Below the pieces are notes generated by a model, which saw nothing but the letters and a program-made list of their open reading frames with translations, had not been told where the DNA came from and searched no databases. From NCBI GenBank assembly GCA_033853355.1, contig JAWOLP010000022.1, positions 1-56,722 of the forward strand: a DNA stretch of 56,722 bases, in the 5' to 3' direction. A program made the position numbers and the translations under genes. The DNA is from Candidatus Micrarchaeia archaeon. GTDB taxonomy: Archaea; Micrarchaeota; Micrarchaeia; Anstonellales; Bilamarchaeaceae. Below are positions 13,675 through 42,504 of this stretch, one piece after another (the stretch's first letter is position 1; every line of letters begins with the position of its first letter).

Positions 13675-13699
13675 GGATGACCCAGGTATGCACTAAAAT

Positions 13700-14164
13700 A
13701 TGCATGCAAAGGAGAAAAAACCGGACGAACTGGACGAGCGCATCCTGACCGAGCTGCTCCGCGACTCGAAGCGCTCCTACCGCAGGCTGGCCAAGGACAT
13801 CGGGATGTCGCCGACCGCCCTGATAGAGAGGATACGAACGCTCGAGAAGAACGGCTACATAACCGGGTACGGATGCAGGGTGAACTACTCCAAGCTCGGC
13901 TTCGAGTTCATGGCGCTGGTCGAGATAAGGCTGGCTGGCAAGGACATGCTCGCTATCGAGAGGAAGATCTCCAGGATACCGCACGTCGCGGCGGTCTGGG
14001 ACACCACCGGCGAGTACGACGCCGTCGCGATCCTGATGTGCAAGACGCGGAGCGACCTGAGCTCGATCGTCAAGAGGATACACGCGCTCGACGAGGTCGA
14101 GAGGACCAAGACCAACACGGTTCTGAACGTCGTGACCAGGCTGACGGAATTCTACGAGGTCTAG
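13700..14164 (+). CDS. lrp: Lrp/AsnC family transcriptional regulator
   Basis: 154 aa. N-terminal HTH (DERILTELLRDSKRSYRRLAKDIGMSPTALIERIRTLEKNGYI) plus a C-terminal RAM/AsnC_trans_reg domain. Divergent from glnA. Confidence 0.9.
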   Translation: MHAKEKKPDELDERILTELLRDSKRSYRRLAKDIGMSPTALIERIRTLEKNGYITGYGCRVNYSKLGFEFMALVEIRLAGKDMLAIERKISRIPHVAAVWDTTGEYDAVAILMCKTRSDLSSIVKRIHALDEVERTKTNTVLNVVTRLTEFYEV

Positions 14165-15789: not shown

Positions 15790-15870
15790 GAATGTATATT
15801 GTCTGAAACTGTATATAAAGATATGCAAAAGTGGAAGATGTATGATGGCTGAAGCGGGAGCGGACCCTCT

Positions 15871-17238: not shown

Positions 17239-17377
17239 AGGTAATTTATGGCTCGAACCCGATTTAAATATATGCTTTTCCATTTTCTGACACACCGGTG
17301 ATCATTGTCGCGATTCCTGGCCGTTGTGCTGTTCGGGTCTCCGGAGATTTATAAATGCGTGTCACAGAAAAAGAGGC

Positions 17378-19206: not shown

Positions 19207-19953
19207 GTGGAGGGGGCCCGCCAGACCATATGCAGAGGTGGTTTTCTGCCAGGAATTGCAAAGTACAGGATCGCATCCATCGGAAGCGACGTCCAGGACG
19301 TCAACATCTACCGGCTCGAGCCCTTGGAGGGGAAGGTGCCGCAATTCACGGCCGGCCAGTGGGTCTTCCTGCACATGCTCGACCAGGCCGGCAACAGCGT
19401 GGACAAGAGGCCGTATTCCATAGCCTCGTCGCCGGACATGCCCTACCTGGAGTTCGCGATCGACATGGTCCATGGCCGCTTCACCGGAAAGCTCGAAACG
19501 CTCCCCGTGGGATCAGTTATCGGCGTCGAAGGGCCGCAGGGGAGGATGACATACGAGGGGCAGAAGAACGCCGCGTTCATAGGAGGGGGGACCGGCGTCG
19601 CGCCGTTCATAGGGATGCTGAGGCATATCGCAGCCAAGGGCATCGAGGGACGGTTCGTCCTGTTCTACACCACCCGGACCAGGGAGAGGATAATATACCG
19701 CGACGAGATCGAGAGGCTCAGTAAGGCCAATCCCGGCATAAAGGTGATAATCACGCTGACAAGGGAGACCGCCACGGATTGGGCCGGGGAATGCGGACGG
19801 ATCAACCACGAGATGATATCGAAGCACATCGGCAAGGCCTCGGACTTCGACTGGTGGCTCTGCGGGCCGATGGAGCTCCTCAAGAGCATGAGGATATGCC
19901 TGGCCGGGATGGGGGCCGACCCGAAAAGGGTGAGGATGGAAGGCTGGGGATAA
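19207..19953 (+). CDS. FNR-like FAD/NAD(P)-binding oxidoreductase
   Basis: RPYSIAS (FAD-binding RxYS motif), GGGTGVAPF (NAD(P) motif), C-terminal CGPMELL. GTG start as given in the track; the exact start is uncertain. Confidence 0.8.
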   Translation: MEGARQTICRGGFLPGIAKYRIASIGSDVQDVNIYRLEPLEGKVPQFTAGQWVFLHMLDQAGNSVDKRPYSIASSPDMPYLEFAIDMVHGRFTGKLETLPVGSVIGVEGPQGRMTYEGQKNAAFIGGGTGVAPFIGMLRHIAAKGIEGRFVLFYTTRTRERIIYRDEIERLSKANPGIKVIITLTRETATDWAGECGRINHEMISKHIGKASDFDWWLCGPMELLKSMRICLAGMGADPKRVRMEGWG

Positions 19954-26870: not shown

Positions 26871-26994
26871 GTCAGTCATGCTAAAGCAGTGTCACCGTAT
26901 TATTCCGTGTCCAAAAGTGTTTTTAATGATTTCGTTTTAATCATTTTTTTTTATTATTTCACACTAGTGATGGAAACACGGCCCAAGGCCTGAT

Positions 26995-27093: not shown

Positions 27094-28293
27094 ATGTCAA
27101 ACAGGCTCCCGCAGGGGATGCGGCACGTGGCCGCGCTCCATCACGAAGAACATGAGAAAAGGCACGCCGTGTTCATGAGCTATCATGCCGCGGACCAGCA
27201 GGAGCGGATACAGAAGAAGATCCGGCAGCGCCTGATGCTCGACCCGATCGAGGCGGCCTACGCCCTGCAGGAGGGCAACAAGAAGCACGTCTCCCGCGTG
27301 GAGGAGTTCCAGGGGGATTATCCCGAGAAGATAAAGACGCTCATGCTCGTCTGCGCCGACGCGCGCATGGGCGGCATGTTCGAGTTCGACGATTTCGCGA
27401 AGAGGGGGATTGCCGCGGTGTACGTCGCCGGCAACGTGTCCGACTTCCTGCAGACCGCGGGCGTCAAGGAGATATTCAGGCGGATGGACAACGATTCCTC
27501 GATAGTCATCACGGGCCACGCCAAGTGCGGCGCGGTCCATTGCGCGGCCGAGAAGGGCCATTACGACCATCTCCGGAACATCGCCAAGCTCCTCCACCTG
27601 GTCGCCCCGACCGGCGAGATAGACAACGTGAAGGCGCAGGCGGAGGCGCTTGCCGGGAGCGATGAGTTCCGGAAGCTGTCGGAGAAGAAGAACGTCCATC
27701 TGGTGACGGCGTACGTGGACATCGCCCACCACACCCCGCACGTGAGGCTTGTGGAGGACGGGGCCACGAGGGAGCAGGATCGGGAGCTGATTGCAAGGCT
27801 CGACCGGAAGTTCCAGGAATCGAACGCCGGGGAGGACCTCGCGTCCCACCAGTTCGCGCACACGGTCGTGATATCGGGGCCGGCCCTGCCTTTCGACGCC
27901 CGGGAGATCTTCTCTGCCGGCTCGAACGAGATATTCTGCGTCTCGGCGGGCGATTACGGCGGCAAGCGGCACAAGGGCCAGCTTTCCGAGGCCGAAGTCG
28001 CTTCAGTGGAGATGGCCTCCCTGGGCATGCTGGACGAGAAGGCCGTCGCCTCGATCGAGTATTCGGTCGAGAAGAACAAGTCGCAGCACATACTCCTGCT
28101 CCACACCGACCTGGCGGTCATCGATGCCTGGGAGGCGCAGCTGATAAAGATGAGCGAGATAGTCTCGAACGCCCTAGTCGAGGGGAGGCTCGAGATAACG
28201 ACCGCTGTGTATGATTCGAGCACCGGGCGCGTCACCATGGTGCGCCATCTCGTCAACGAGGATGCGGCTGCCGCGATATCTTCGAGGACCTGA
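27094..28293 (+). CDS. Duplicated beta-carbonic-anhydrase-fold protein, paralogue B (best-conserved active site)
   Basis: 399 aa. LVCADAR...VYVAGNVS...IVITGHAKCGAVHCA, with C-to-H spacing of 55 aa and HxxC, as in canonical beta-CAs. The second domain (REIFSAGSNEIFCVSAGD...SIEYSVEKNKSQHILLLHTDL) keeps the beta-CA strand pattern but has non-ligand residues at the CxDxR positions. N-terminus is His-rich. Confidence 0.75.
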   Translation: MSNRLPQGMRHVAALHHEEHEKRHAVFMSYHAADQQERIQKKIRQRLMLDPIEAAYALQEGNKKHVSRVEEFQGDYPEKIKTLMLVCADARMGGMFEFDDFAKRGIAAVYVAGNVSDFLQTAGVKEIFRRMDNDSSIVITGHAKCGAVHCAAEKGHYDHLRNIAKLLHLVAPTGEIDNVKAQAEALAGSDEFRKLSEKKNVHLVTAYVDIAHHTPHVRLVEDGATREQDRELIARLDRKFQESNAGEDLASHQFAHTVVISGPALPFDAREIFSAGSNEIFCVSAGDYGGKRHKGQLSEAEVASVEMASLGMLDEKAVASIEYSVEKNKSQHILLLHTDLAVIDAWEAQLIKMSEIVSNALVEGRLEITTAVYDSSTGRVTMVRHLVNEDAAAAISSRT

Positions 28294-28324: not shown

Positions 28325-29689
28325 TCAATCCAGCAGCGCAAGCACGGAGGGCTCCTTTATGCGCCGGTTGAGCACCGACTTGGGATCCCTCGGGAAATCC
28401 TTTATCGACTGGTGGATCATCTTCCGCAGGTCGGGCTCGACTGTGGACACGTATGAGTTTATCCCCTCGGCCTCCACCTCTGGCACCGTGAGCACGTGCA
28501 GATGGACCCCCAGATGCTGCACGATGGCGTTCATGATCGGGTCGTTCTTGACCTTCCTCCGGATGTTGTTCGCTTCGAGGACGTCCTTGCCCAGGAGGTA
28601 ATAGTCCCGGAGCCCCAGGGTTACCATCGAATAGCATATGCCCCCCAGCTTGTAGGGGCCGAAGCTGCTGAAGGGGTTCAGAACGTTGGAGCCGGTCGCC
28701 AGGAAAACGCTGCCTGCGACATCGTAGTTGCTCGACTCCTTCAGGTTGAGGTAGCGTATCAGCGTCTCCCTCGGGTTGGTTATGTCCGGCGCGCAGATGA
28801 GGCCGCAGACCGGCTTCTGCTTGCTGCTCCGGCGTATCCGTTCAGGATGGTTTTCCGGGAGGTTGTCCATCACATATCGCATGAGGCCTGCCATGTCGTC
28901 GAGTATCGTGTGGACGTGGAGGTTGTCGTCTATGCGTATCTTCAGGCCCGTCCTGTAATTGAGGATCCCGCAGTTGACGTGCACCGGTATGCGTTCCAGC
29001 TCGTTGTCCGCATCCAGGGCCGTCCTCAGGTAGCGCTTGGAGATCAGGGGCTGCTTGATGAGGTCTATGCTGGTGAGGAAATCGTCCGCGCTCTTCCCCT
29101 CATGCGCATACACGCTCTTGAGGAGGAGGAACAGGTCATCGTCGTTGTCCAACATGATCGTGCGTTCCTTCTTCGCGGTCTTGTCGAAGAAGGTGATCTC
29201 CGGCTTGATATTGTAGAGCATGGCCCGGATGGCTTTCCACGCCTCGTTGGAGTGGCTCATGCCGCAGTTGATCTCCGAGTCGGGGTCGATGACCTCCACC
29301 TCGGTTTCCGGGTTGTAGACCAGCTTGTTGACATCCGGCACCTTGATGTCGGCATGTCCTGAGATCTGCACGACCGTCCGGTGCAGGACGCCAGGCCCGG
29401 GATCCACCCGCACCTTCTCGCCGAATTCGGCCAGGCTGCTGTTGAGGCCGCCCTTGATGATGTCTTTCAGCTCGATGTAGGATTGCTTGTTCACGACCGA
29501 GCCGGCTATCGTGACCCGCGAGACGATGACCTTGACGCCACGGGCCGCGTATTCCAGGATCAGGCTGCGCAGTATCTGGTTCTCCACTGAGCCCCCGTCC
29601 CGCGCGTCTCCGCAGCGGACCTGGATCACATGCTGTATCTCATCCACCGGATAGTTCACATTGAAAGAAAGAGTCGTCCTAGTTCCCAT
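28325..29689 (-). CDS. Beta-carbonic-anhydrase-fold protein, paralogue C (CsoSCA-like spacing, large insertions)
   Basis: 454 aa. VRCGDAR (CxDxR)...RVTIAGSVV...QISGHAD...EINCGM, with His 86 aa after the first Cys and the second Cys 30 aa later. C-terminal half (VFLATGSNVLNP...DYYLLGKDV) is related to the degenerate domains of A and B. Lies 156 nt downstream of the NuoB-like gene on the same strand. Confidence 0.65.
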   Translation of the reverse strand: MGTRTTLSFNVNYPVDEIQHVIQVRCGDARDGGSVENQILRSLILEYAARGVKVIVSRVTIAGSVVNKQSYIELKDIIKGGLNSSLAEFGEKVRVDPGPGVLHRTVVQISGHADIKVPDVNKLVYNPETEVEVIDPDSEINCGMSHSNEAWKAIRAMLYNIKPEITFFDKTAKKERTIMLDNDDDLFLLLKSVYAHEGKSADDFLTSIDLIKQPLISKRYLRTALDADNELERIPVHVNCGILNYRTGLKIRIDDNLHVHTILDDMAGLMRYVMDNLPENHPERIRRSSKQKPVCGLICAPDITNPRETLIRYLNLKESSNYDVAGSVFLATGSNVLNPFSSFGPYKLGGICYSMVTLGLRDYYLLGKDVLEANNIRRKVKNDPIMNAIVQHLGVHLHVLTVPEVEAEGINSYVSTVEPDLRKMIHQSIKDFPRDPKSVLNRRIKEPSVLALLD

Positions 29690-29845: not shown

Positions 29846-30391
29846 TCACTTGCCCTTGCGCTTCTTGTCGATGGCCATGCCGGCCTTCAGTATGCCTGCG
29901 AGCAGCGCGTACGGCTCGGGCGGGTTGCCTGGGACTTTCACATCGACCGGGATGACATCCTCGACGCGGCCGGAGCCTGCGAGGGCGTAGCCGCCCTTGA
30001 ACGGCCAGCCGGTGCATGCCCCGTCGCCGGCCGCGACGACCGCGCGCGGCTCGGCCATCGCCTCATAGGTCTTGAGAAGGGCGTCGCGCATGTTCAGCGC
30101 GACCGGTCCCGTGGCGATGAGCACGTCTGCGTGGCGGGGCGAGGCGACGAAATGCACCCCGAAGCGCTCGGCATCGACGCGGGGCGCCATCATCAGCTGC
30201 TCCTCCAGCTCGACGTCATTGGGCGAGCCGCAGTCCACCATGCGGACATGGATGGAGCGCGAGAAGAGCGAGAGGGGCCTCTGCTTGAGCAGCAGGGCGA
30301 CTTCCCGCACCGCCGGATCCGGCGACTTTTCCGACACCTTGTCGGGATAGAAATCAAACACGAATTTCAGGGTCTCTAGCAGCATGTTCAT
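29846..30391 (-). CDS. NuoB/HyfI/HycG-like small subunit lacking most [4Fe-4S] ligands
   Basis: VASPRHADVLIATGPV and IPVDVKVPGNPPEP match the family. The cluster motifs read VDCGSPNDVELE (family: GSCNGCEIE), GDGACTG (Cys kept) and PGNPP (family: PGCPP). Confidence 0.85.
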   Translation of the reverse strand: MNMLLETLKFVFDFYPDKVSEKSPDPAVREVALLLKQRPLSLFSRSIHVRMVDCGSPNDVELEEQLMMAPRVDAERFGVHFVASPRHADVLIATGPVALNMRDALLKTYEAMAEPRAVVAAGDGACTGWPFKGGYALAGSGRVEDVIPVDVKVPGNPPEPYALLAGILKAGMAIDKKRKGK

Positions 30392-30394
30392 CCC

Positions 30395-31963
30395 TCACAG
30401 GTCGGTCCCGGCATAGGACATGTTGAAGCTCTTGTTTATGAGCGGGAAATCCGGCACGATATTGCCTTCCACGGCCTTCTCTATGCCGCGCCAGTCCCTG
30501 AAGGACGCGGTGCGGCAGGCGAGGCGCCTTATCCTCCCCTCGCCGGAGAGCTCCACGAGGAAAGCGCACCCTCCGCGGGGGGCCTCGGTCCAGCCGACGC
30601 CGGTGCGCAGCTCTGTGCCCGTCTGGGCCTTGATTTCGCAGCGGGTCTTGCCTTCCGGCAGGTTGGAGACGAGCCACTTGATGAGCCTGGCCGATTCCTT
30701 GACTTCGGCGAGCTTGACCAGGAACCTGGCGAGCACGTCGCCCGTCTTCTCGGTGCGCTCGCTGAAACCAGCTGCGGAGTATGCCGAGTAGGGCATGACC
30801 TTGCGAAGGTCGCAGCTCACCCCGGACGCCCTGGCGACCGGCCCGACGAGGGCAAGGTCCTTCGCGACGGCCTGGTTGACGCGGCCGGTCGAGAAGACCC
30901 GGTCGAGGTATGTCGAAGAGGTGAGGGTCATCCGCTCGACCCCGTCGAGCCTCTTCTCGAAGAGGGCCAGGGCCTCCTTTATCGCGGATATCTCCTTTGC
31001 GCCAAGGTCCTTCGAGACGCCGCCGACGGCGCACACGCCCCGGAGGAAGCGGTTGCCGCTCACCAGCCGGTTCAGCCTCATCATGTCCTCGCGGAGGACG
31101 GCGAACCTGGAGGCGGAGAGCGTGAATCCCACGTCGGTGGGCATGCCGCCCAGGTCCGAGAGGTGGCTGTATATCCTCTCCATCTCAAGGAGGACCGCGC
31201 GAATGTATTCGGCCCGTTCCGGGACCTTGAGCGAGAGGGCGCGTTCAACAGCATAGCAGTATGCGACCGAATTGGCGACCGACTCGTCGCCGGATATCTG
31301 CTCGACCGTAGGCAGGATGTCGGCGGGGGCCTTCCCCTCGACCGCGCTCTCGAGGCCGCGGTGCAGGTAGAACATCCTCACCTCCATCTTGTTGATCTTC
31401 TCGCCCACCACGTGGAACCTGAAGTGGCCTGGCTCTATTATGCCGGCATGCACCGGCCCGACGGCGATCTCGAACTCGCCCTCGACGCCGGTCCCCTTCA
31501 TCGGATAGGTCCGGCTCGCCTGCTTCGGCATGGGCTTGCCGCTCATCGGGTGGGACTGGGGCAGGATGCCCTCGGGATGGAAGAGGAGCGGCCTCTGGTC
31601 CGGGATGTCCTGGAGCTTGAGGCCGGTCAGGTCCTGCATCTTCCTCTCGTCCCACAACGCGGCGTTGGCCTTGGCCGACAAAGCGGCGAATTCCTTCCCC
31701 TGCGACTGGAGCACGAGCATCTTGCCGGAGTCCTGGAGCCTGAAGAGGTAATAGACCGTGAATCCCGCTTTCTCGCCCTGGGGGGAGATGAAAGCGGAGT
31801 CGAAGACCGCGCCGTTGCCCATGGATGCCTCGCATGCGGGGACCAGATCGCCAGGCTTCACTTTCGCCCAGATGCAGCCTCCGCGGTCTTCCCATCTCTC
31901 CATCGACCCGCTCCGCATGGATTTCTGGATGATACCCATGAACCGTTTGGCTTCGTCAACCAT
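30395..31963 (-). CDS. Fused NuoC-NuoD / HyfG/HycE-like large subunit lacking all NiFe cysteine ligands
   Basis: GPVHAGIIEPGHFRF and FYLHRGLE are typical of group-4 large subunits. The N-terminal motif reads EQISGDESVANSVAY instead of RxCGxCxxxH. The C-terminus reads NMSYAGTDL instead of DPCxxCxxR. Confidence 0.85.
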   Translation of the reverse strand: MVDEAKRFMGIIQKSMRSGSMERWEDRGGCIWAKVKPGDLVPACEASMGNGAVFDSAFISPQGEKAGFTVYYLFRLQDSGKMLVLQSQGKEFAALSAKANAALWDERKMQDLTGLKLQDIPDQRPLLFHPEGILPQSHPMSGKPMPKQASRTYPMKGTGVEGEFEIAVGPVHAGIIEPGHFRFHVVGEKINKMEVRMFYLHRGLESAVEGKAPADILPTVEQISGDESVANSVAYCYAVERALSLKVPERAEYIRAVLLEMERIYSHLSDLGGMPTDVGFTLSASRFAVLREDMMRLNRLVSGNRFLRGVCAVGGVSKDLGAKEISAIKEALALFEKRLDGVERMTLTSSTYLDRVFSTGRVNQAVAKDLALVGPVARASGVSCDLRKVMPYSAYSAAGFSERTEKTGDVLARFLVKLAEVKESARLIKWLVSNLPEGKTRCEIKAQTGTELRTGVGWTEAPRGGCAFLVELSGEGRIRRLACRTASFRDWRGIEKAVEGNIVPDFPLINKSFNMSYAGTDL

Positions 31964-31966
31964 GCG

Positions 31967-33433
31967 TCATGCACCTCTTATGGCCGCGGCCGCCATCTGG
32001 AGCAGCCGTATCAGCTCGCCTGGAGGCGTCAGCCCGAAGTATATCGCGATCAGCAGGAGGACAACGAAGGGGGCTATCATGCTCAGGGCTGGCTTGAAAT
32101 CCGTGGCGATGGCGGATTTCGACCCGAAGCTCATCTGCGATGTCCGGTAAAGGAGGCTCGCGAAGGTTATCGTCGTGAAGAGTATCAGCAGGAGGGCGGG
32201 GATGTACTGGCCGGATGAGAGGGAGGCGGCGAGGATCCCCAGCTCGGAATAGAATGTGCCGAAGGGCGGGCTCCCGGAGATGCCGACGGCTATGAAGACG
32301 AACGAGATCGCGACTATCGGGAGCACCTGCGCCGCCCCGCTTATGAGGCGTATCTCCTTGGTGTTGAAAGCCAGGGCGATCATGCCGCTCGCCAGGAATG
32401 CGAGGGGCTTGGCGAGCGAATGCGATATCATGTGGAAGAGGGCTGCGAACACGCCTATCGGACCCCCGACCCCGAGGGCGAGGACGACGATGCCCATGTT
32501 CTCGACGCTGGAGTAGGCGAGCATGCGCTTGAGGTTGTCCTGGAAATACAGCCGCAGGGCCCCGACGGCCAGCGATAGGAGGCCGAAGACGATGAGCAGG
32601 GTGGAGGCGAAGGAGATCAGCTGAGGGTAGGGGCTCAGCATCTGGTAGGCCCGCACGAGGCCGTAGAAGGCGATGTTGAGCAGGACCCCTGAGAGCAGGG
32701 CGCTGACCGGGGTGGGCGCCTGGCTGTGCGCGTCCGGCAGCCACACATGGAGCGGGACCAGGCCGATCTTCGTGCCGAAGCCGACGACTATGAACGCGAA
32801 GGCTATCTTGAGGAAGAAGAGGTTCGCGCCCGCGCGGGCGGTGAGCAGGCTGGGCCAGTCGCCGCCGGACGACGAGCCGGGCTGGAAGACCGCGTAGAGG
32901 AAGAACATGATGCCGACGAGAGCCAGCAGGATGCCGACCGAATTGATGATGAAGAACTTCCATGCCGCCTCGATCGAGTTGGATGTGTTGTAGAAGCTTA
33001 TGAGGAACACGGTCGCGAGCGTGGTGGCCTCGATGGAAGCCCACATGACGATGATGTTCGAGGCGAGCGTGGCCGCGAGCATCGAAGCTAGGAAGAACGA
33101 GAGGAGGCCATAGTACATGCCCAGCTGGCCCTCGGAGACGATCTTCTCCTCGACCTCGTGGCGGATGTAGCCCACCGAATACACGAACACGAAGAAGGCG
33201 ACCACGACCGTGAGGGACGTGAAGACCGCGGAGACCGAGTCCATGTAGAGGTAGCCGTAGAAGTCGACTACCGGGGCAGGCGACTGCATGAAGCCCCAGA
33301 GGGCCGCGAAGGCGAAGGCGGCAGCGGCCGCGGCGCCCGCGACGGCGACGATCTCGGAGAAGCGGGGGTGCTTCTGGGAGAGGAACGCGAGCAGGCCGGC
33401 GATGATCGGAGCGAGTATTATCAGTTCGAGCAT
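31967..33433 (-). CDS. NuoN/HyfF/MrpD-like antiporter-type subunit
   Basis: 488 aa, about 14 TM helices. Proton_antipo_M-type core (WASIEATTLATVFLI, PLHVWLPDAHSQAPTPVSALLSGVLLN). Confidence 0.85.
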   Translation of the reverse strand: MLELIILAPIIAGLLAFLSQKHPRFSEIVAVAGAAAAAAFAFAALWGFMQSPAPVVDFYGYLYMDSVSAVFTSLTVVVAFFVFVYSVGYIRHEVEEKIVSEGQLGMYYGLLSFFLASMLAATLASNIIVMWASIEATTLATVFLISFYNTSNSIEAAWKFFIINSVGILLALVGIMFFLYAVFQPGSSSGGDWPSLLTARAGANLFFLKIAFAFIVVGFGTKIGLVPLHVWLPDAHSQAPTPVSALLSGVLLNIAFYGLVRAYQMLSPYPQLISFASTLLIVFGLLSLAVGALRLYFQDNLKRMLAYSSVENMGIVVLALGVGGPIGVFAALFHMISHSLAKPLAFLASGMIALAFNTKEIRLISGAAQVLPIVAISFVFIAVGISGSPPFGTFYSELGILAASLSSGQYIPALLLILFTTITFASLLYRTSQMSFGSKSAIATDFKPALSMIAPFVVLLLIAIYFGLTPPGELIRLLQMAAAAIRGA

Positions 33434-33437
33434 TGTG

Positions 33438-35096
33438 TCACCTTCTCTCTATGAGGTCGTCGAGCTCCTTGGTGTCGAGCGTTCCCACGGTCCCGCGTAT
33501 CTTCAGCGCGAGCAGTGTCGCGACTATCGTGAGCATCAGCACATCGAAGAGGGCGACCGCTTCCCCCACGAACGGCACCTGGATCGGCAGGGCTGTCGGG
33601 AGCAGCACGGCCCCGTTCTCCATCAGCAGGAATCCGATGAGCTGGAGCAGGAGGTTGGGCTTGACCGCGATTATCAGCAGGCCGACCAGTATGAGCGATA
33701 TGACGAGGGGGAGCATGAGCGTCGTCCCGCCGAGGACCGACGACAGCACGAAGGCGAGCACGATGAGCACGCAGGAGTATATCAGCGCGCGTGCCGTGGA
33801 GACCGGCGCCCCCATGAACAGCGGGTCGAAGTCGAGGTTCAGGCGCAGGTCGGCCTTCGTCGCCTTGAAGACGTTGTAGAAGCGCATTGGGAGCAGCTTC
33901 ACCTCGCCCGGCATGACCCTGAAGAGGTGGTAGAGCAGGATGGGCACGAGTATGAGCTTGAAGAGGACAGTCGAGCCCAGGCGGAAGTAGGCGTCTATCG
34001 TCGGCTCGTAGAGCACCTGGGAGAGGAAGATGAGCACCAGGCATGCGCTCTGGAGCGCGTAGAGCTCGAGGCTCCGCCGGAACGTCGCGCTGAAGATGAA
34101 GTAGAGCGAGCTGAGGAGCATGATGAGGAGGAGCGCGGTCGTGATGTTCTCCCCCGGCTGTGAGGCGAGGAAAAGGCGGGAGAGGAACGCGAGGACTGAG
34201 AGGATCATTGCGAGGATCAGGAGCTCCCCGACCTTGAACAGCCTCACCTTCACGCTTATGCTCTCGACGGTCGCGGTGATGACCGAGAGCGCCACCCCGA
34301 TGCCGAGCACCGCCGCGGCCCTCTCGAGGCCGTCCTGGGGCACGAACGGCAGGAACAGGACGCCCAGGAGGCTGAACAGCAGGAATATCTTGGCCGCATG
34401 CGCCCATTCGATGAGGGCCAGGTCCGGGCCCGAGTTCTCGAGTATCATCGCCTCATGGACCATGGTCAGCTCCAGGTGGGTCGCCGGGTTGTCGAAAGGC
34501 AGCCGCCCGGTCTCGGCCAGTATTATGACGAAGAGGGCCAGCGCGGCCAGCCAGTGGGCAGGCGCTAGCGCCTCGGTCCATGCCGAGGCCCCCGAGGCGA
34601 GCGGGACGATCAGGCTGTAGCCGCCCGACACCGCGAGGAAAAGGACGACCGCGAAAAGCGCCGGCTCTATGAGCACCGAGTAGAGCATCTCCCTGCTCGA
34701 GCCCAAGCCCCCGAAAGCGCTGCCCGCGTCGAGGCCGGACAGCGCGGTGAGGAAGCGGCTTATGGAGAAGGTGTAGGCGAAGAAGATGATGCTCACGGCC
34801 AGGTAGGGCGACGAGGAGAGTATCGGGAGCATGAGCGATGCAATCGCGATGGACACGAAGCCCACGACGGGAGCTATGACGAACACGAACGATGTGACGT
34901 CGCTCTTCTTGGTCCCCTTGGAGAGGAGCTTCAGCACGTCGAAGTAGGGCTGGAGGATGGGCCCGCCGGACCTCCCCTGGAAGCGGGCCTTGACCTTGCG
35001 CATTATGCCTATCAGCAGTGGCGCGAAGATGAAGACGAAGAGGATCTGCAGGAGCGCCTGCGCCGCGAGCGGGATGTTTTCAAGCATATGCATCAC
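33438..35096 (-). CDS. Fusion of NuoH/HyfC/HycD-like and HyfE/NuoK-like membrane subunits
   Basis: The N-terminal ~300 aa carry the NuoH-type RKVKARFQGRSGGPILQPYFDVLKLLSKG motif. The C-terminal ~230 aa are a multi-TM HyfE-like module. 552 aa is about the sum of HyfC and HyfE. Confidence 0.78.
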   Translation of the reverse strand: MMHMLENIPLAAQALLQILFVFIFAPLLIGIMRKVKARFQGRSGGPILQPYFDVLKLLSKGTKKSDVTSFVFVIAPVVGFVSIAIASLMLPILSSSPYLAVSIIFFAYTFSISRFLTALSGLDAGSAFGGLGSSREMLYSVLIEPALFAVVLFLAVSGGYSLIVPLASGASAWTEALAPAHWLAALALFVIILAETGRLPFDNPATHLELTMVHEAMILENSGPDLALIEWAHAAKIFLLFSLLGVLFLPFVPQDGLERAAAVLGIGVALSVITATVESISVKVRLFKVGELLILAMILSVLAFLSRLFLASQPGENITTALLLIMLLSSLYFIFSATFRRSLELYALQSACLVLIFLSQVLYEPTIDAYFRLGSTVLFKLILVPILLYHLFRVMPGEVKLLPMRFYNVFKATKADLRLNLDFDPLFMGAPVSTARALIYSCVLIVLAFVLSSVLGGTTLMLPLVISLILVGLLIIAVKPNLLLQLIGFLLMENGAVLLPTALPIQVPFVGEAVALFDVLMLTIVATLLALKIRGTVGTLDTKELDDLIERR

Positions 35097-37087
35097 GAGA
35101 CCGCGTATATCGCGAATAACAGCACAAGGCCGAGCGTGATCATGAGGTACATCAGGTAGTCGCTGAGCTTGCCGGAATGGAACACGGCCGAGTACGGGGC
35201 CAGGTAGTGGAAGGCGCGGGAGGCCGGATCATAGATGATATAATTGAAGAAAGCCGAGCCGTAGGCCGCCGCGGGCTTCGACAGCGGGTCGAGCCAGGCG
35301 TTGAGCGAACGGGTCACGGGCATGGCGAATCCCGCGGCCGAATACTGCATGCGCGGCGTGACGTCCTGGTAGCCGCAGCCCCATGTCTCGCCTGCCTCGT
35401 GCTTCCGGTTCCTTCCCGCGAAGCGGAGCCCTGCCCAGAGGAGGGCCGAGCCCAGTACGAGGGCGATCAGCACCGGCGCTGTCTGGATCCCTTCGGCGTA
35501 GACCGATATCGAGGAAGCCGAGGCCGGGAAGCCGAGGGATGAGAATACGCCGAGAGCGGCCTGCGCCCCGCCGAGGGGAAGCGCCCCTGCGGCGACGCAC
35601 GCGAGCGCGAGGAGCCCCATGCCGGCAAGCATCGAAGAGGGCACCTCCTTGGCATGGGCCGCGTGGGCGCTCCTAGGCATGCCGAGGAACGGGATGCCGA
35701 AAGCCTTCACGAACGCGCCCACGGCGAGGGCGCTGGTGAGGGCCAGGAACAGGACGCCGAGGGAGAGCAGGAGGGAGAGCTGGGCCGAAGGGCCGATGCC
35801 GCCGAGCAGCGCCTCGAAGGTGAGCAGCTCGCTGACGAACCCGTTGAGCGGGGGTATCGCTGCGATGGAAGCGGATGCGAGGAGGAACAGCACGGCCGTG
35901 GCCGGCATGAGCTTGGCCAGGCCCCCGAGCTCCTCGATGTTCCGCTGGTGGGTGGAGTAGGCGATGCTTCCGGCTCCTAGGAAGAGCAGGCTCTTGAATA
36001 TCGCGTGGTTGAACGTATGGTAGAGGGCGGCGAACAGCGCCAGGGCGGCCAGGGCCGGGATCTTCGCCCATGCGAAGAGGACGGCCGCGCCGAGCCCGAT
36101 GAATATTATGCCGATGTTCTCTATGCTGTGCATGGCGAGCAGGCGCTTGAGGTCATGCTCCAGGAGCGAGTAGAGCACGCCGAGCACGGCCGAGAACATG
36201 CCGAGCACCAGGATCACCGTGCCCCACCACATGGCCGCCCCTCCGTCCATGATGTGGAAGAACCCGAACAGGACGCGGACGAGGCCGTATATCGCGACCT
36301 TGAGCATGACGCCGGACATGAGGGCCGAGACGTTGCTCGGCGCCTGGGGATGGGCCAGCGGGAGCCAGGCGTGCAGGGGGATTATCCCGCATTTCGAGCC
36401 GAATCCGATCAGGGCGAGCACGAACACCGCGTCCGCGAACATCGGCGCGTAGGAGGCCGCCCCGAAGGAGCTGAAGTCCAATGAGCCGGAGCCGCCGGCC
36501 AGTATCAGGAACATCAGGGTGAGGGCGACGGCCCCTATATGAGTTATTATAAGATAGTTGAAGCCCGCGGTCTTTACCCCCTCCTCGCGGTGCTCGTAGG
36601 TCACGAGGAAGAACGAGCTGAGCGCCATCGCCTCCCAGACGACCAGGAAGAGCAGGGCGTTCTGGGCGGTCACGACGAGGATCATCGAGAGGAGGAAGAG
36701 ATTGTAGAGGAAGGCGAAGCGCCCCAGGTTATAGCCCTTCTCGCTGTATTCGCTGGAATAGCCGAACGAGTAGATCGAGACCGCGGCGCCCACGAAGGCG
36801 ATGATGGAGACGAAAAGCCCGGAGAGGGCATCCACGCTGACAGAGAGCGTGCCCAGCGGCGCGCCGAGCTGGGCGAACACCATCGTGCCCGGCCCCATCC
36901 CGATGAACGGGGCGATCCCGGCGAAGAGGGCCAGGGCGCATCCGACTAGCGCGAGGCCGAAGCCCAGGACCGTGCTGGCGCGCTGGTTCCTCGAAGCGAG
37001 CAGCGAGAAGGCGGAACCGGCGATGAATGCCAGCATGGATAGTGCAAGTGCGGGCTGGCCGAAAATGTTCGGATCACTTATTTGCAT
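35093..37087 (-). CDS. NuoL/HyfB/HycC-like antiporter-type subunit
   Basis: 664 aa. WEAMALSSFFLV and PLHAWLPLAHPQAPSNVSALMSGVMLK are typical of the family. 4-nt overlap with the next gene. Confidence 0.88.
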   Translation of the reverse strand: MQISDPNIFGQPALALSMLAFIAGSAFSLLASRNQRASTVLGFGLALVGCALALFAGIAPFIGMGPGTMVFAQLGAPLGTLSVSVDALSGLFVSIIAFVGAAVSIYSFGYSSEYSEKGYNLGRFAFLYNLFLLSMILVVTAQNALLFLVVWEAMALSSFFLVTYEHREEGVKTAGFNYLIITHIGAVALTLMFLILAGGSGSLDFSSFGAASYAPMFADAVFVLALIGFGSKCGIIPLHAWLPLAHPQAPSNVSALMSGVMLKVAIYGLVRVLFGFFHIMDGGAAMWWGTVILVLGMFSAVLGVLYSLLEHDLKRLLAMHSIENIGIIFIGLGAAVLFAWAKIPALAALALFAALYHTFNHAIFKSLLFLGAGSIAYSTHQRNIEELGGLAKLMPATAVLFLLASASIAAIPPLNGFVSELLTFEALLGGIGPSAQLSLLLSLGVLFLALTSALAVGAFVKAFGIPFLGMPRSAHAAHAKEVPSSMLAGMGLLALACVAAGALPLGGAQAALGVFSSLGFPASASSISVYAEGIQTAPVLIALVLGSALLWAGLRFAGRNRKHEAGETWGCGYQDVTPRMQYSAAGFAMPVTRSLNAWLDPLSKPAAAYGSAFFNYIIYDPASRAFHYLAPYSAVFHSGKLSDYLMYLMITLGLVLLFAIYAVS

Positions 37088-37226
37088 ATTCTAAGACCTT
37101 CTGGCCGGTAAAATTCAACATAATTCAATGTGAAGATTTTTAAAGATGGCTGGGCTCGCCGGGTCGGCATGCCGGTCCGCGGCGCGTTTTCAGACTGTTT
37201 TTAATAATTCGGGGCGAGAGACAATC

Positions 37227-37664
37227 ATGGAAAAGGTCCTGATACTGAGCGGAAGCAGGAGCGACGAGGAGATAGCGAAGCAGGCGATGGACGTCCTCAA
37301 CGCATTCGGCGTGCCGTGCAGGTACGAGGTCGCCTCGGCCCACCGTAACCCGGAAAAGGTCGAGCGGCTCATGAAGGAATCGACGGCGCAGGTTTTCATA
37401 GGCATAGCCGGGATGAGCGCGGCGCTCCCTGGCGTGATGGCCTCGAGGACGGCCAAGCCGGTGATAGGGATCCCGGTCAACGCCTCGCTCATGGGCCTGG
37501 ACTCGCTCATGTCGATCGCCCAGATGCCCCCTAACGTGCCCGTCGCGTGCGTCGGGGTGGGGATGGGCAAGAACGCCGGCCTGCTCGCGGTCCAGATACT
37601 GGCCCTCGGCGATCCAGCGCTCGCGGCGAAGCTGGCCGAGTTCAAGGAGAAGCTCAAGCAGTAG
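37227..37664 (+). CDS. purE: N5-carboxyaminoimidazole ribonucleotide mutase / AIR carboxylase catalytic subunit
   Basis: ILSGSRSDEEI, SAHRNPEKV, GIAGMSAALPGVMAS, PVIGIPV. Start set at MEKVLIL (ATG 37227), about 22 nt after TATA-like TTTTTAATAAT. Confidence 0.92.
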   Translation: MEKVLILSGSRSDEEIAKQAMDVLNAFGVPCRYEVASAHRNPEKVERLMKESTAQVFIGIAGMSAALPGVMASRTAKPVIGIPVNASLMGLDSLMSIAQMPPNVPVACVGVGMGKNAGLLAVQILALGDPALAAKLAEFKEKLKQ

Positions 37665-37707: not shown

Positions 37708-38928
37708 TTGCCGGCAGATTCAGAGAAGACCTACCAGCTTCGGAAGCAGCTCCGCATGCTGGAGGCGTATCGTGGCAGCGGCACCGAGCTGATATCGGTG
37801 TACATACCGTCAGGCTCGCCCATACACGAGATGAACAACAAGCTCCGCGAGGAGGCGAGCCAGGCGAGCAACATAAAGTCGAAGTCCACCCGCCTCAACG
37901 TGCTGGGCGCGCTGGAGAGGATAATGAACCACCTCAAGCAGTTCAAGAAGACCCCCGACAACGGCCTGGCCGTCTTCGCCGGCAACATCTCCGACAATCC
38001 GGCCAAGGTGGACATCGAGCTCTTCTCGCTCGAGCCCCCGGAGAAGCTCAACATCGGCACCTACCGGTGCGACAGCAGGTTCTTCCTCGACCCGCTCCAG
38101 TCGATGCTCGGCTCGGTCGATTCGTTCGGGGTGGTGGTCCTCGACGGGCGGGAGGCCACGGTCGCCCTGGTGAAAGGCACGAACATTACGATCATCAAGA
38201 AGCTCAACTCCACGGCCCATGCCAAGATACGCAAAGGAGGCCAGTCCGCCAGGAGGTACGAGCGCCTCATCGAAGAGGCCATCGAGGTCTACTACAAGCG
38301 CGTCGGCAACGCGATGGACGAGGCTTACCTCAAGGACGAGAAATCCATAGTCAAGGGCGTCATAGTGGGCGGCCCGGGGCCCACCAAGGAGAACTTCATG
38401 AAGATGAGCCCGTTCAACTACCAGATAAAGGTCCTCGGCGTCGTCGACACCGGCTACACGGAGGAGTTCGGCATCCGGGAAGCCCTCTCCAAGAGCGAGA
38501 ACATACTGGCCCAGCAGGAGGCCGTAAAGGAGAAGATCCTCGTCGACCGGTTCATCAAGGAGGTCGTCAACGACGGCCTGGCCACCTACGGCGAGAGCCA
38601 GGTGCGCGAGGCTGTCATGAGCAGGCAGGCCGAGAAGGTCCTCCTCTCCGAGGGGCTCACGCACATGACCGGCTCGTACCGCTGCCCCTCGTGCGGGGCG
38701 GAGGAGAAGAAGGCGAGCAGGGAGCAGCCCCAGGACACCATCCAGTGCCCCAAGTGCGGCAAAGAGATGAAGCTCCAGTCGAAGGAGCTGCTTATAGACG
38801 AGATGACCGAGCTTGCGAAGCAGAACGACATAGAGGTGGAGATAATCTCCACGAACACCGTCGAGGGAAACCAATTCCTGACCGGCTTCGGCGGCATCGG
38901 GGCGTTCCTCAGGTACAAGACGAGATGA
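37708..38928 (+). CDS. prf1: Peptide chain release factor aRF1
   Basis: NIKS (ASNIKSKS) and GGQ (RKGGQSARRY) motifs. C-domain with a CPSCG...CPKCG zinc-ribbon insert. TTG start as given in the track. Confidence 0.93.
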   Translation: MPADSEKTYQLRKQLRMLEAYRGSGTELISVYIPSGSPIHEMNNKLREEASQASNIKSKSTRLNVLGALERIMNHLKQFKKTPDNGLAVFAGNISDNPAKVDIELFSLEPPEKLNIGTYRCDSRFFLDPLQSMLGSVDSFGVVVLDGREATVALVKGTNITIIKKLNSTAHAKIRKGGQSARRYERLIEEAIEVYYKRVGNAMDEAYLKDEKSIVKGVIVGGPGPTKENFMKMSPFNYQIKVLGVVDTGYTEEFGIREALSKSENILAQQEAVKEKILVDRFIKEVVNDGLATYGESQVREAVMSRQAEKVLLSEGLTHMTGSYRCPSCGAEEKKASREQPQDTIQCPKCGKEMKLQSKELLIDEMTELAKQNDIEVEIISTNTVEGNQFLTGFGGIGAFLRYKTR

Positions 38929-39775: not shown

Positions 39776-40405
39776 TCAGCCGCGGGTTATCGCGCACGAG
39801 CCCATGGTGTAGTTGCTTCCGACCGTCACGACCATGCCGTTGCTGTAGTAGCTGGCGCCGCCCGGGCCCTGCTTGACGTATATGGTAAGGCCGCTCTTCA
39901 GCATGCTGAAGCAGTCGGAGGGGTCCCTCTTTCCGTCCGGCGCGGTGCAGCCGTCGTCGGCGAGCGAAAGCGGGGTGACGGACTTGCCGCCCATGCCGCT
40001 GCTGCCGGCGAAGTCCACGCCGCACTGGAGGATGTTGTCGCTGACCTTGGTGTCCTTGACCCCGCGCACGTCCATGACTATGAAGACGTTGGACGCAGAG
40101 TCGAATATCCCCTTGAACGTCTCGGCGTCGACCGAGGTGCCCGGAGTGAATGCCATCGAGGACTGGTTGAGGAAGTAGTAGGCCAGCGCGAGGGCGATGA
40201 CGAGGAGCACGACGACGGCCGCGGTCTTGAGGGCCGAACCCTTCTTCTGGACCGTCGCTGCGGATCCGGAGGGCGTTCCCTCCTTGGCCTCCGGCGCGGC
40301 CTTCGCCGCCTCTGGGGCCTTTTTCGCTTCGGGGGCGGGTTTCGCCTCGACGGCCGTCTCCGGCTCTTCGGCCGCGTTCCTCTTCTTCTTGCTTGCCATA
40401 ATCAT
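39776..40405 (-). CDS. Membrane-anchored extracellular protein, unknown function
   Basis: K/A/E/P-rich N-terminal segment, one TM helix (AAVVVLLVIALALAYYF), then a Cys-containing globular domain. The ATG overlaps the stop of the upstream gene (TGATG). Confidence 0.55.
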   Translation of the reverse strand: MIMASKKKRNAAEEPETAVEAKPAPEAKKAPEAAKAAPEAKEGTPSGSAATVQKKGSALKTAAVVVLLVIALALAYYFLNQSSMAFTPGTSVDAETFKGIFDSASNVFIVMDVRGVKDTKVSDNILQCGVDFAGSSGMGGKSVTPLSLADDGCTAPDGKRDPSDCFSMLKSGLTIYVKQGPGGASYYSNGMVVTVGSNYTMGSCAITRG

Positions 40406-42504
40406 CAGCTGAACAGCGCCACAAGCGGGCATGATTGGTAGTAATCGAGGTTGGCGTTTATCTGGGCCTTGTTCTGGTATATCACCGAGAACCTAGGCGG
40501 CTGGTTGTCGGGGGCGTATCCCAGCACGAACGACGAATCGGCCGCGCTTATGCTGTTCTGGCAGTCGCGCGCGTTGTAGCTGGTGTTCTGGCCCTGCTGG
40601 CTCGTGCTAGTGCAGGAAGTCTGGGTCAGGGTGTATATGGCGTAGGTCTTGTTCTTGCCGCCGAACGAGCCGGCCAGGCTGCTCGCGCAGGCTTCCATGG
40701 CGGCCGAGTCGGAGGAGGAGGCGTTGCGCAGGTCGACCACTATCGCGGTCGTGTTCTTCGAGTTGAACTCCGAGAGGAACTCAGGCAGGGTGGCGTCGGT
40801 CGATGTCTTGCCCAGGAACAGGTACATGAACACGCTGAAGAGGAGCAGGATCATCATTATGGAAAGCATGGCGACGCCGAGTATCTGGCCGGTCTTCGGT
40901 ATGCGGAAACGGCTGGCGGAGAAGATGTGGATGAATATCAGGAGCACGATCGAGCCGTAGGAGAGGAAGAAGAGGGCGGAGAACGCGCCGAGTATCAGGG
41001 GCGACTGGGGTATCGTCGAGGGAGAGACCGGGCTCTTGGTGGCCACTTCGGCTATGCCGGTGTTTATGCGCCTGGCGAAACCGCGGAACAGCAGCAGCAC
41101 CCTCGTGGCAGGCGTGTCGCTCTCGCTCTGCAGGAGGAGCTGGGCCCTGGACGTGAGGTTGCTGTAGTTGGCCGAGAGGGCCTGCAGCTGGGCCACGGTC
41201 AGCCCGTCGCGGAACTGGGCGTCGACGTCGCTGGTGTCGTTCACGAGCAGCTCCAGGGACTTGAGGGACACCGGGTCCAGGTCCTTGGTCTGGAGGACGA
41301 GTATGAGGGAGTTCTCGATGTTCTTGGCGTTCTTGGTGTCGTTGTAGACCGCCAGCATGGATGAGGAGGAGTTCGAGACGAGCGAGGTGAGGTTCTGGTA
41401 GGTGGATATGTCGCTGTCTATTGTCGTGAAGTTCCGCGCGCCGATGTCCTGGGGGATGGTCGTGTTGAGGGACTTGAGCTGGTCCAGCTTGCCCGAGAGG
41501 GTGTTGTTCGCCACATGGCCCAGCGCAGCGTTTCCAAGGGCGATCGCGTTCCCGCCGGCGACCGAGATGGGGGCGAACTGGTCCGTGTAGTAGACGGCCA
41601 GGTTCTCGGTCTTGAGGTGCTCCATGCGCGTCTGGGTGCTGTTGAATATCTGCGCGGACACGCCCTGGTAGTTGCTCAGGGGCGCGATCTTCTGGTCGAG
41701 GGACACAGCCTGGTCGTGGATCGACTGCGCCGCGCCCTCATCGAGCTGGAACGAGGGGCAGATCGCGTAGCAGACGCCGTAGCAGGCCTGCCGGTCCGCC
41801 GAGTCGTTGAGCCGCGGGGTGCGGAATATCGTGTGCTCTATCTTGATTGCGTCGGGCTTCAGCTCGCCGGAGGTGCTGCTGATGTAATCCAGCGTCGCGC
41901 CCATGTTGGTCTGGTTGAGGCTGTTGAGCATGACCGTGTAGTTGTTCAGCAGGTCGTCCATCCTCAGGCTGATCGGAGTGAAGTCCATCAGCGGCTGGAC
42001 GAGCTGGTCGGCGGAGCCGAGGTTCAGGCCATCCTTGTAGATGGAGTAGAGCAGGAGCGCGTTCTGGGAGCAGGATGCGTTGTCCCTGCATATGACCGGC
42101 TGGCCGTTGACGGTTATCTTGCCGGTGGAGAGCAGGACGTCGTCCCTGCATGTGTACTCCTCCTTGCCCTTGAAGTCGTAGCCGTCGTTCCTGCTCAGGT
42201 TGAAGGTCTGGATCGTCGAGAGCAGGTTCTGGACGTCGCCCTGGCTGGGCGAATACTGCTGGACGAAGTATGTATAGAGCACCGAGTCCAGCTGGCTCTG
42301 GTTGGTGACCGGGCTGCCGTCCTGCAGGAGGAAGGCGTACGAGCCGTTGATATTGACGATGGAATACGAGGAGTTGCCGGACGAGAAGTTGGTGTAGGTG
42401 ATCGAGGCGTTCTGCTCCTGAGGATAGAGGTAGTCCGAAACGTTGAAGGCCGCCGAAACGGCGGCAAGTAACAGTAGGCACGCGACTGCTTTATGGGAGG
42501 TCAT
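40405..42504 (-). CDS. Large surface protein, sequon-rich, with two internal TM helices
   Basis: 699 aa. Signal peptide (AVACLLLLAAVSAAF). More than twenty N-x-S/T sequons by eye. Two adjacent TM helices near residue 500. Confidence 0.65.
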   Translation of the reverse strand: MTSHKAVACLLLLAAVSAAFNVSDYLYPQEQNASITYTNFSSGNSSYSIVNINGSYAFLLQDGSPVTNQSQLDSVLYTYFVQQYSPSQGDVQNLLSTIQTFNLSRNDGYDFKGKEEYTCRDDVLLSTGKITVNGQPVICRDNASCSQNALLLYSIYKDGLNLGSADQLVQPLMDFTPISLRMDDLLNNYTVMLNSLNQTNMGATLDYISSTSGELKPDAIKIEHTIFRTPRLNDSADRQACYGVCYAICPSFQLDEGAAQSIHDQAVSLDQKIAPLSNYQGVSAQIFNSTQTRMEHLKTENLAVYYTDQFAPISVAGGNAIALGNAALGHVANNTLSGKLDQLKSLNTTIPQDIGARNFTTIDSDISTYQNLTSLVSNSSSSMLAVYNDTKNAKNIENSLILVLQTKDLDPVSLKSLELLVNDTSDVDAQFRDGLTVAQLQALSANYSNLTSRAQLLLQSESDTPATRVLLLFRGFARRINTGIAEVATKSPVSPSTIPQSPLILGAFSALFFLSYGSIVLLIFIHIFSASRFRIPKTGQILGVAMLSIMMILLLFSVFMYLFLGKTSTDATLPEFLSEFNSKNTTAIVVDLRNASSSDSAAMEACASSLAGSFGGKNKTYAIYTLTQTSCTSTSQQGQNTSYNARDCQNSISAADSSFVLGYAPDNQPPRFSVIYQNKAQINANLDYYQSCPLVALFS

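Follow-up and report, generated by a model that had tools for sequence, protein, structure and literature searches.

Complexes of the Ehr kind (energy-converting hydrogenase related) are assemblies resembling the group 4 [NiFe]-hydrogenases that lack CxxC motifs; the class was named between 2005 and 2013, and no function has been assigned to it. Its members have been reported from Geobacter sulfurreducens (EhrABCDLS), Nitrospira, ammonia-oxidising archaea, Margulisbacteria and bacteria of the candidate phyla radiation (CPR). Here we analysed a 56,722-nucleotide stretch of DNA (contig JAWOLP010000022.1 of assembly GCA_033853355.1; hereafter the window) from a Candidatus Micrarchaeia archaeon, in which five minus-strand genes in the order A-BC-D-L-S encode what we recognise from sequence, with high confidence, as an Ehr complex of Micrarchaeota that has lost its cofactor ligands. 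The host is archaeal, as seen from an aRF1 gene in the window, and the nearest named homologues belong to Candidatus Micrarchaeota, within the DPANN archaea. At its core this is the rediscovery of a named class, which an earlier note on this DNA, made from the letters alone, had described without naming it; the new point is the genomic context, a linkage to carbonic anhydrase (CA) genes, seen here together with a complete loss of cofactor ligands.

Comparison with the described systems brings out both the kinship and the departures. The window agrees with the Ehr of Geobacter sulfurreducens in its subunits, in their order (A, B, C, D, L, S) and in a large subunit without either CxxC motif, but differs from other Ehr in that the small-subunit ligands are also lost (as in just 13 of 67 loci), EhrB and EhrC are fused, and β-CA genes are linked. 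The best structural relatives of every window subunit are the group 4 [NiFe]-hydrogenases (formate hydrogenlyase, 7Z0S; Hyf; membrane-bound hydrogenase, 6CFW), which share with it the motifs GPxHxxxxEPGHFR and HRGxE; unlike them, the window lacks the Ni-Fe cysteines (RxCGxCxxxH and DPCxxCxxH/R), the proximal cluster, the 2x[4Fe-4S] subunit of HycF/EchF/MbhN type and nearby maturation genes. Complex I (NDH-1) has a homologous core and has also lost the Ni-Fe cysteines, but it keeps cluster N2 and the cluster chain, whereas the NuoB-like subunit of the window is without the N2 cysteines, and the window has no NuoA/I/J/K or NuoE/F/G genes. Within the complex I superfamily, every member with a solved structure retains three Fe-S clusters in a chain. 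The MBS and MBX complexes of Pyrococcus furiosus are likewise hydrogenase relatives that no longer make H2, yet MBS still has three [4Fe-4S] clusters, along with two Ni-Fe cysteines out of four, and remains a redox enzyme. Mrp antiporters, non-redox and driven by ion gradients, offer another likeness, their MrpA- and MrpD-type subunits being homologous to EhrA and EhrD, but they have no NuoH-, NuoD- or NuoB-like subunits, and Ehr has no MrpE/F/G. Finally, DabAB (DAB1/DAB2) and NDH-1MS/MS' (CupA/CupB) combine a zinc-containing, CA-like soluble subunit, with a β-CA-like fold in DabA, with proton-conducting subunits of NuoL type, and the mitochondrial complex I of plants and protists has a γ-CA domain. 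In contrast to DAB and CupA, the CA-like proteins of the window would be paired with an entire Ehr chassis of five genes that has no redox drive.

The large subunit, EhrL, matches the Pfam families Complex1_49kDa, NiFeSe_Hases and Complex1_30kDa, and HMMER alignment to solved structures pairs it best with HycE of Escherichia coli (7z0s_E; E 1.7e-61). In this alignment 'veqisgdesvans' stands against 'sdrvcgicgfahs' and 'ksfnmsyagtd' against 'gsldpcysctd', and the four Ni-Fe cysteine positions are occupied by Ser224, Glu227, Ser516 and Gly519; alignment with MbhL of P. furiosus (6cfw_L) gives the same register. The earlier note had read precisely these four replacements, and both alignments uphold it. 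The two open reading frames (ORFs) it had delimited for the large and small subunits are also confirmed, on the minus strand, which it had not stated, and all the motifs it quoted, including the kept flanking family motifs, are present in the two proteins: GPVHAGIIEPGHFRF, FYLHRGLE, EQISGDESVANSVAY and NMSYAGTDL in EhrL, and GSPNDVELE, GDGACTG and PGNPP in the small subunit, EhrS. The altered site is itself conserved, since 120 of the 120 nearest EhrL homologues, drawn from several phyla, carry (I/V/L/C)(S/A)GD... together with NKSxNxSY(A/S)G. Asp226, which lies between the two former N-terminal Ni-Fe cysteines, does not vary across a 15-sequence alignment, and of the 80 large subunits without these cysteines that were sampled in our genome scan, 79 have it. 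His38 and Tyr87 of Thermus thermophilus Nqo4, which we take to be quinone ligands, align (HMMER, 2fug_4) with Ile176 and Gly225 of EhrL. Selenocysteine at the ligand columns was considered and rejected, as Ser and Gly are encoded there by sense codons and translation stops directly after the motif.

Loss of ligands is equally complete in EhrS, a member of the Pfam family Oxidored_q6 (E 2.3e-19) that matches HycG with an E-value of 2.3e-24. Aligned with HycG (7z0s_G), MbhJ (6cfw_J) and NDUFS7, and within an 81-sequence MAFFT alignment, its cluster-ligand positions are Pro57, Val60, Gly124 and Asn156. The protein has two cysteines in total, Cys54 and Cys126, and the former is replaced by Ala in the closest relatives, leaving one conserved cysteine. 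That residue, the cysteine of GDGACTG, sits two positions beyond the canonical ligand column, where many true relatives carry a second, non-ligand cysteine (GACACSGG); hence all four canonical ligands are gone. The earlier note had counted three of four as lost: the loss stands, the count does not. The structure-based alignment it had proposed as a check, made here with HycE, MbhL, HycG, MbhJ and NDUFS7, places no cysteine at any Ni-Fe or cluster-ligand position. Sister clades carry different residues in place of the cluster ligands (P/V/G/N in one, D/T/D/N in the other), which leaves the small subunit without a conserved new metal site. Further redox parts are missing from the surroundings as well: the 286 window ORFs of at least 60 amino acids contain no ferredoxin-type CxxCxxCxxxC motif, the 56.7-kb window has no gene of NuoI/HycF type, and none of the 40 window genes scanned belongs to a Hyp maturation family, although such genes may lie outside the window. 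On its sequence, the arm cannot hold Ni-Fe or a proximal cluster and, because all of these ligands are gone and no ferredoxin-like subunit is encoded nearby, the Ehr complex here cannot be a hydrogenase, nor can it pass electrons along the usual chain of clusters.

The assignment to Ehr draws on subunits, motifs and phylogeny together. All five genes have Pfam and NCBIfam matches to the Ehr subunit set, a common gene order runs through 80 related loci, and both the N-terminal and the C-terminal CxxC motif are absent from the large subunit. The 80 loci of the genome scan comprise 10 true hydrogenases, all of which keep the full eight cysteines (ERICGxC...LCYxCxDR and four in the small subunit), and 70 Ehr; the small subunit is readable in 67 of the latter, with all four cluster cysteines kept in 54 and lost in 13. 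EhrL groups with cysteine-less relatives beside the true group 4 hydrogenases and not with NuoD. In a neighbour-joining tree of the large subunit, a rough method applied to a set without a named Geobacter reference, it falls within a cysteine-less clade, separate from the true-hydrogenase clade (CCCC), and the Ehr without Fe-S ligands form two groups. Group 1 unites the Micrarchaeota clade with a sister clade from Methanosarcina, Dehalococcoidia and Moduliflexus; common to both clades are PGNPP, a large subunit with Ser-Glu-Ser-Gly and the gene order A-B-C-D-L-S. Group 2 (L024, L033, L052, L066, L069 and L077, also L053 and L074), from CPR bacteria, Thermoleophilia and Bdellovibrionales, has PGDPP, places the small-subunit gene first in the operon and lies nearer the true hydrogenases. 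Because the two groups are separate, the cluster was lost at least twice. When neighbouring ORFs of the 12 Fe-S-less loci outside Micrarchaeota were clustered, the conserved partners were just EhrC and generic signalling proteins, and no conserved dehydrogenase was found near Fe-S-less Ehr loci. The names that public records give to the homologues disagree with one another and mislead: 'nickel-dependent hydrogenase large subunit', 'NADH-quinone oxidoreductase subunit C', 'formate hydrogenlyase subunit 5' and 'membrane-bound hydrogenase subunit alpha' all occur. The group 4e hydrogenase reported from one Micrarchaeon (Ca. Fermentimicrarchaeum) may belong to the EhrL family.

Despite the lost ligands, the operon bears the marks of a maintained one. 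We estimated ratios of nonsynonymous to synonymous substitution (dN/dS) by the Nei-Gojobori method between the window and one related Micrarchaeota locus (L083); with dS at about 1 and synonymous sites near saturation, the values are rough. They are 0.18 for EhrA, 0.20 for EhrBC, 0.18 for EhrD, 0.24 for EhrL and 0.08 (0.076) for EhrS, and nonsynonymous differences (pN) stay far below synonymous ones (pS) in all five genes. EhrS is also the most conserved protein of the operon, with 87% identity to its counterpart. Such ratios, 0.08 to 0.24, indicate purifying selection, as the earlier note had proposed to examine. Its description of full-length ORFs with normal composition holds, the reading frames being intact and the G+C content at third codon positions (GC3) 0.86-0.90, similar to other window genes. 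Its larger claim, of a maintained and functional non-redox arm and not a pseudogene, finds support in the dN/dS values, the 120 homologues, the intact ORFs and the lack of a ferredoxin motif. The word 'scaffold' that it used likely undersells the arm, given an invariant Asp at the former Ni-Fe site and candidate partners encoded next door.

The membrane arm, for its part, looks functional. EhrA matches NCBIfam PRK06521 (hydrogenase 4 subunit B; E 1.4e-182) and Pfam Proton_antipo_M, has about 20 transmembrane (TM)-like segments and, aligned with HycC (7z0s_C; E 1.4e-70) and MbhH (6cfw_H), retains all four charged residues: the TM5 Glu (VVWEAM) and the lysines of TM7 (GFGSKCG), TM8 (GVMLKVA) and TM12 (HAIFKS). 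EhrD, which matches NCBIfam hydrogenase 4 subunit F (E 3.5e-115) and Proton_antipo_M, reads as keeping the TM7 Lys (GFGTKIG) and the TM12 Lys (HSLAKP), with Asn at the TM8 position (GVLLNIA). The fused EhrBC combines a Pfam NADHdh match (E 3.6e-33, residues 16-302) with one to NCBIfam PRK11492 (HyfE; E 1.3e-12, residues 316-548); the two parts are fused in Micrarchaeota loci and separate genes in most others, and at L083 (4074-5728) they were called as two genes. Since the arm keeps the charged residues of the proton/cation pathway, the complex most likely still moves ions, and such movement would proceed without redox chemistry. Genes of the operon are separated by gaps of 3-4 nt or overlap, and all features are placed in Table 1.

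Table 1. Positions of the Ehr operon, its candidate partners and other features in the 56,722-nucleotide window
Feature	Position	Strand	Description
EhrA	35093..37087	minus	664 aa; first gene of the operon; HyfB/NuoL/MrpA-like antiporter-type membrane subunit
EhrBC fusion	33438..35096	minus	552 aa; NuoH/HyfC-like (~1-305) and HyfE-like (~316-548)
EhrD	31967..33433	minus	488 aa; HyfF/NuoM-like antiporter-type membrane subunit
EhrL	30395..31963	minus	522 aa; fusion of NuoC- and NuoD/HycE-like large subunit
EhrS	29846..30391	minus	181 aa; NuoB/HycG-like small subunit
TATA-like box TTTAAAAAT	37136..37144	minus	putative promoter of the operon, ~50 nt upstream of the EhrA start codon; read from sequence
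X454	28325..29689	minus	454-aa orphan soluble protein with a two-lobed β-CA fold; candidate Ehr partner
CA399	27094..28293	plus	399-aa two-lobed β-CA; convergent with X454
P406	25601..26821	minus	406-aa paralogue of CA399; CVDAR and HAECG motifs; divergent from CA399
Inverted repeat	26925..26945		AATGATT-7 nt-AATCATT (7 bp) in the AT-rich 272-nt gap between CA399 and P406; could be a regulator site, or chance
purE	37146..37664	plus	AIR carboxylase/N5-CAIR mutase family; adjoins the Ehr operon, upstream and divergent
aRF1	37708..38928		archaeal release factor gene
FNR-like flavoprotein gene	19207..19953	plus	FAD_binding_6 and NAD_binding_1
tRNA	10407..10537	plus	131 nt (Rfam, 57.6 bits)
Glutamine synthetase	12149..14083	minus	644 aa
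PF04607 gene	14170..15828	minus	552 aa; RelA/SpoT nucleotidyltransferase region
PF04607 gene	15871..17295	minus	474 aa; RelA/SpoT nucleotidyltransferase region
Sequon-rich protein	40405..42504	minus	699 aa; probably a glycosylated surface protein
Protein directly after it	39776..40432	minus	218 aa; probably a glycosylated surface protein

Just downstream of EhrS lie three genes for soluble proteins without a TM segment, X454, CA399 and P406. CA399 is the clearest case, with a Pfam Pro_CA match (E 2.1e-10) above the curated cut-off and motifs that align with the catalytic dyad and zinc ligands of Mycobacterium tuberculosis Rv3588c (CADAR against CADSR, GHAKCGAV against GHDSCGAV). Its zinc ligands Cys87, His142 and Cys145 and its Asp89/Arg91 dyad are all invariant in the family, and its AlphaFold2 model (predicted local distance difference test score, pLDDT, 82.9) retrieves the β-CAs 1ddz_A (E 4e-10) and 8thm_C, a carboxysomal one (E 8.5e-6), in Foldseek. 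P406 is related to CA399 over its full length (BLASTP E 8e-15; CA399 family hidden Markov model (HMM), E 1.3e-15). X454, by comparison, has no Pfam match and no sequence match to any PDB chain, and its family counts 93 representatives among 1.84 billion proteins. Its AlphaFold2 model (pLDDT 88.6; predicted template-modelling score 0.87) has as its top Foldseek match the internally duplicated β-CA of Porphyridium, 1ddz_A (probability 0.99), followed by other β-CAs, at low TM-scores (0.35) that make this a call at the level of the fold. In 63 of the 66 full-length representatives of its family, Cys26, Asp28, Arg30, His112 and Cys142 do not vary; an insert of about 30 residues separates the His from the second Cys, and the rough dN/dS of X454 against L083 is 0.05. 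At L083 (9466-10831) the gene appears as two overlapping ORFs of 181 and 276 amino acids, a frameshift or an assembly error. Profile-profile comparison of X454 with CA399 is weak (hhalign probability 37%) and confined to the CxDAR region, so the β-CA claim for X454 is carried by the fold evidence. Judged by the zinc-binding Cys/His/Cys set, the Asp-Arg dyad and the fold, β-CA identity would thus apply to CA399 on its sequence, to P406 on its motifs and to X454 on its modelled fold. Searches for kinship with DabA (PF10070) or CupA/ChpX gave no Pfam match at E-values up to 10 among 27 family members and none in PDB profile searches.

Proximity of β-CA-fold genes to Ehr recurs in Micrarchaeota: with zinc-binding and catalytic residues intact, they flank the operon in 6 of 7 distinct loci of this lineage and in 0 of 79 other loci (Fisher p 1.5e-8, a value that ignores shared ancestry), at distances of 15-600 nt and in varying orientations, subfamilies and neighbourhoods. 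In the window, L083 (EhrL identity 72%) and L093, X454 follows EhrS, CA399 is convergent and P406 divergent, the P406 orthologues of the latter two loci occupying the equivalent place. At L081/L082 (67%), X454 is divergent upstream of EhrA, a 419-aa Pro_CA gene lies 32 nt after EhrS on the same strand, and a further CA-like gene lies beyond; L084 (60%) has two X454 paralogues, one on each side of Ehr; L085 (55%) has a gene of the CA399/P406 family after purE; L001 (49%) has an X454 fragment at the contig end; and at L096/L097 (53%), in a wholly different neighbourhood, a 300-aa Pro_CA gene (CGDRR, GHTDCG) lies 15 nt after EhrS. X454 alone adjoins Ehr in four or five arrangements, and a metagenome scan for its relatives yielded three loci, with the arrangement of the window recurring in one. 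In the 79 loci outside Micrarchaeota, no CA gene came up with the family HMMs, with five phmmer queries or with a CxDxR...HxxC pattern; two matches to the pattern were rejected, one being an ArsR regulator and the other a protein without a family. purE too recurs beside Ehr, upstream and divergent at L083 (1482-1919) and downstream at L085 (12160-12645), between EhrS and the CA-like gene, and it may reflect more than synteny that a purine-synthesis step using CO2/bicarbonate is encoded beside CA-like genes. For the window's purE, the annotated ATG (37146) is probably too early, the L083 protein having 145 aa and MEKVL beginning near 37224.

We tentatively read the complex, at somewhat less than even confidence, as a machine that translocates ions without redox chemistry, in concert with CO2/bicarbonate interconversion by its CA-like neighbours. 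Because there is no redox input, ion movement must couple to something else, and in this lineage the soluble, two-lobed β-CA-fold proteins X454, CA399 and P406 beside the operon are the leading candidates. In such a scheme, the reaction CO2 + H2O <-> HCO3- + H+ at a zinc site would be coupled to ion passage through the Ehr membrane arm. An ion gradient could power the capture of CO2 in the form of bicarbonate, which is the mode of DAB and cyanobacterial NDH-1MS; alternatively, the cycle could run in the opposite direction and serve pH and ion homeostasis. The conserved Ser-Gly-Asp-Glu pocket at the former Ni-Fe site would then contribute to a relay for protons or cations, or act in docking or gating. 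Identity, ligand loss, selection and genomic linkage are shown by the data, whereas the physical association of Ehr with the CA-like proteins we infer from the gene neighbourhood, and the direction and the ion used are inferred too. A bolder version, which we hold to be rather unlikely, would make the redox-stripped complex I/hydrogenase chassis of Micrarchaeota the ion-conducting engine of a vectorial carbonic anhydrase, with up to three two-lobed β-CA-fold proteins as its catalytic heads.

Several observations weigh against a coupling to CA. One Micrarchaeota locus, L086 (EhrL identity 50%), has no β-CA-fold or other CA-like neighbour, and no CA gene lies within 10 kb of Ehr in the Methanosarcina/Dehalococcoidia/Moduliflexus sister subclade or in the Group 2 clade of CPR bacteria and others. 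As these other Fe-S-less clades are without a CA gene, such coupling cannot explain cofactor-free Ehr generally. Both CA families also occur with no Ehr nearby, at L087-L089 (flanks of 2.3-10 kb) and at L090-L092 (short contigs), and inherited synteny could account for part of the linkage. The CA-like proteins are relatives of neither DabA nor CupA and have no membrane helix, and the dN/dS estimates come from near-saturated synonymous sites. DPANN archaea are not known autotrophs, so what they would gain from concentrating bicarbonate is not obvious.

The main competitor is a stand-alone, Mrp-like cation/proton antiporter, in which the peripheral arm is a structural cap or regulator and the CAs, not bound to it, are merely co-regulated within a pH or ion regulon; we regard this as possible while leaning against it. 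It agrees with the antiporter-type subunits and their intact charged residues, with the cofactor-free architecture that stands without a CA neighbour in Methanosarcina, Dehalococcoidia and CPR bacteria, and with the X454 gene starting 156 nt after EhrS behind an AT-rich upstream region of its own. The CA families found apart from Ehr point the same way, once beside a simple Na+/H+ exchanger: on the 7.2-kb contig L091 (3292-7231), which has no Ehr, an X454-family gene, a convergent exchanger gene (PF00999) and a P406-family gene lie together, an arrangement in keeping with the idea that these CA-like proteins pair with ion transporters in general. One would not expect a mere cap, however, to exceed every other protein of the operon in conservation, as EhrS does with its dN/dS of 0.08, or to keep a near-invariant Asp and NKSxNxSYxG at the former active site across phyla, and the adjacency of CA genes survives at least five rearrangements, including the same-strand gene 32 nt after EhrS.

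Continued redox activity, through an unrecognised cofactor, non-cysteine ligation or electrons from a partner module encoded elsewhere, is far less credible. The literature does hold a formate dehydrogenase-Ehr hypothesis (Margulisbacteria), Ehr subunits of Geobacter increase on formate, the four cluster cysteines persist in most Ehr loci whose small subunit is readable (54 of 67), and the FNR-like flavoprotein gene lies about 10 kb from the operon. Against these stand the loss of all four cluster ligands and all four Ni-Fe ligands with one conserved Cys left in EhrS, replacements at the cluster site that vary between sister clades, a 56.7-kb stretch without a ferredoxin-like subunit or motif, the absence of quinone ligands (Ile176, Gly225), and Fe-S-less Ehr loci with no conserved dehydrogenase near them. 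Hidden redox function is thus unlikely, as is decay, the notion that the genes are relics left after hydrogenase function was lost. Decay would account for the loss of every catalytic ligand and for the split X454 and separately called EhrB and EhrC of L083, but it is effectively refuted, and a pseudogene was rejected on dN/dS and motif conservation: the ORFs are intact and packed with gaps of 3-4 nt or overlaps, their GC3 is like that of other genes, pN lies far below pS for every gene, and 120 homologues spread over many phyla keep the substituted motifs.

Several other features of the window deserve record. The FNR-like flavoprotein gene lies about 7 kb from CA399, and at L087 (6306-7043) a gene known by its FAD_binding_6 and NAD_binding_1 domain pair directly adjoins a CA399 homologue, in divergent orientation. 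Two adjacent genes carry RelA/SpoT nucleotidyltransferase regions (PF04607), a pair unusual for an archaeon, and the remainder of both proteins has no family match. The glutamine synthetase has an N-terminal extension of about 190 aa ahead of its β-grasp domain, though its long start (GTG) may be an artefact of ORF calling. One protein of 699 aa is rich in Asn-x-Ser/Thr sequons and has a signal-like segment at its N terminus and hydrophobic stretches at its C terminus; a 218-aa protein follows it, and neither has a Pfam family. The length of the single tRNA found by Rfam suggests an intron; ARAGORN reported no tRNA across the whole window.

These findings matter in several ways. An Ehr arm without any cluster, kept under selection, would be a natural experiment on how a peripheral and a membrane arm are coupled without electron transfer. 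Because the public names of its homologues mislead, H2 metabolism or respiration could be wrongly attributed to DPANN archaea in metabolic reconstructions. The lineage-specific link to CA-fold genes provides a concrete, testable hypothesis for the function of Ehr, a question open since 2005-2013. If the bolder version holds, it would be a further independent joining of a carbonic anhydrase with modules of complex I type, after DAB, NDH-1MS and the mitochondrial γ-CA domain, and would be the first function assigned to any Ehr complex.

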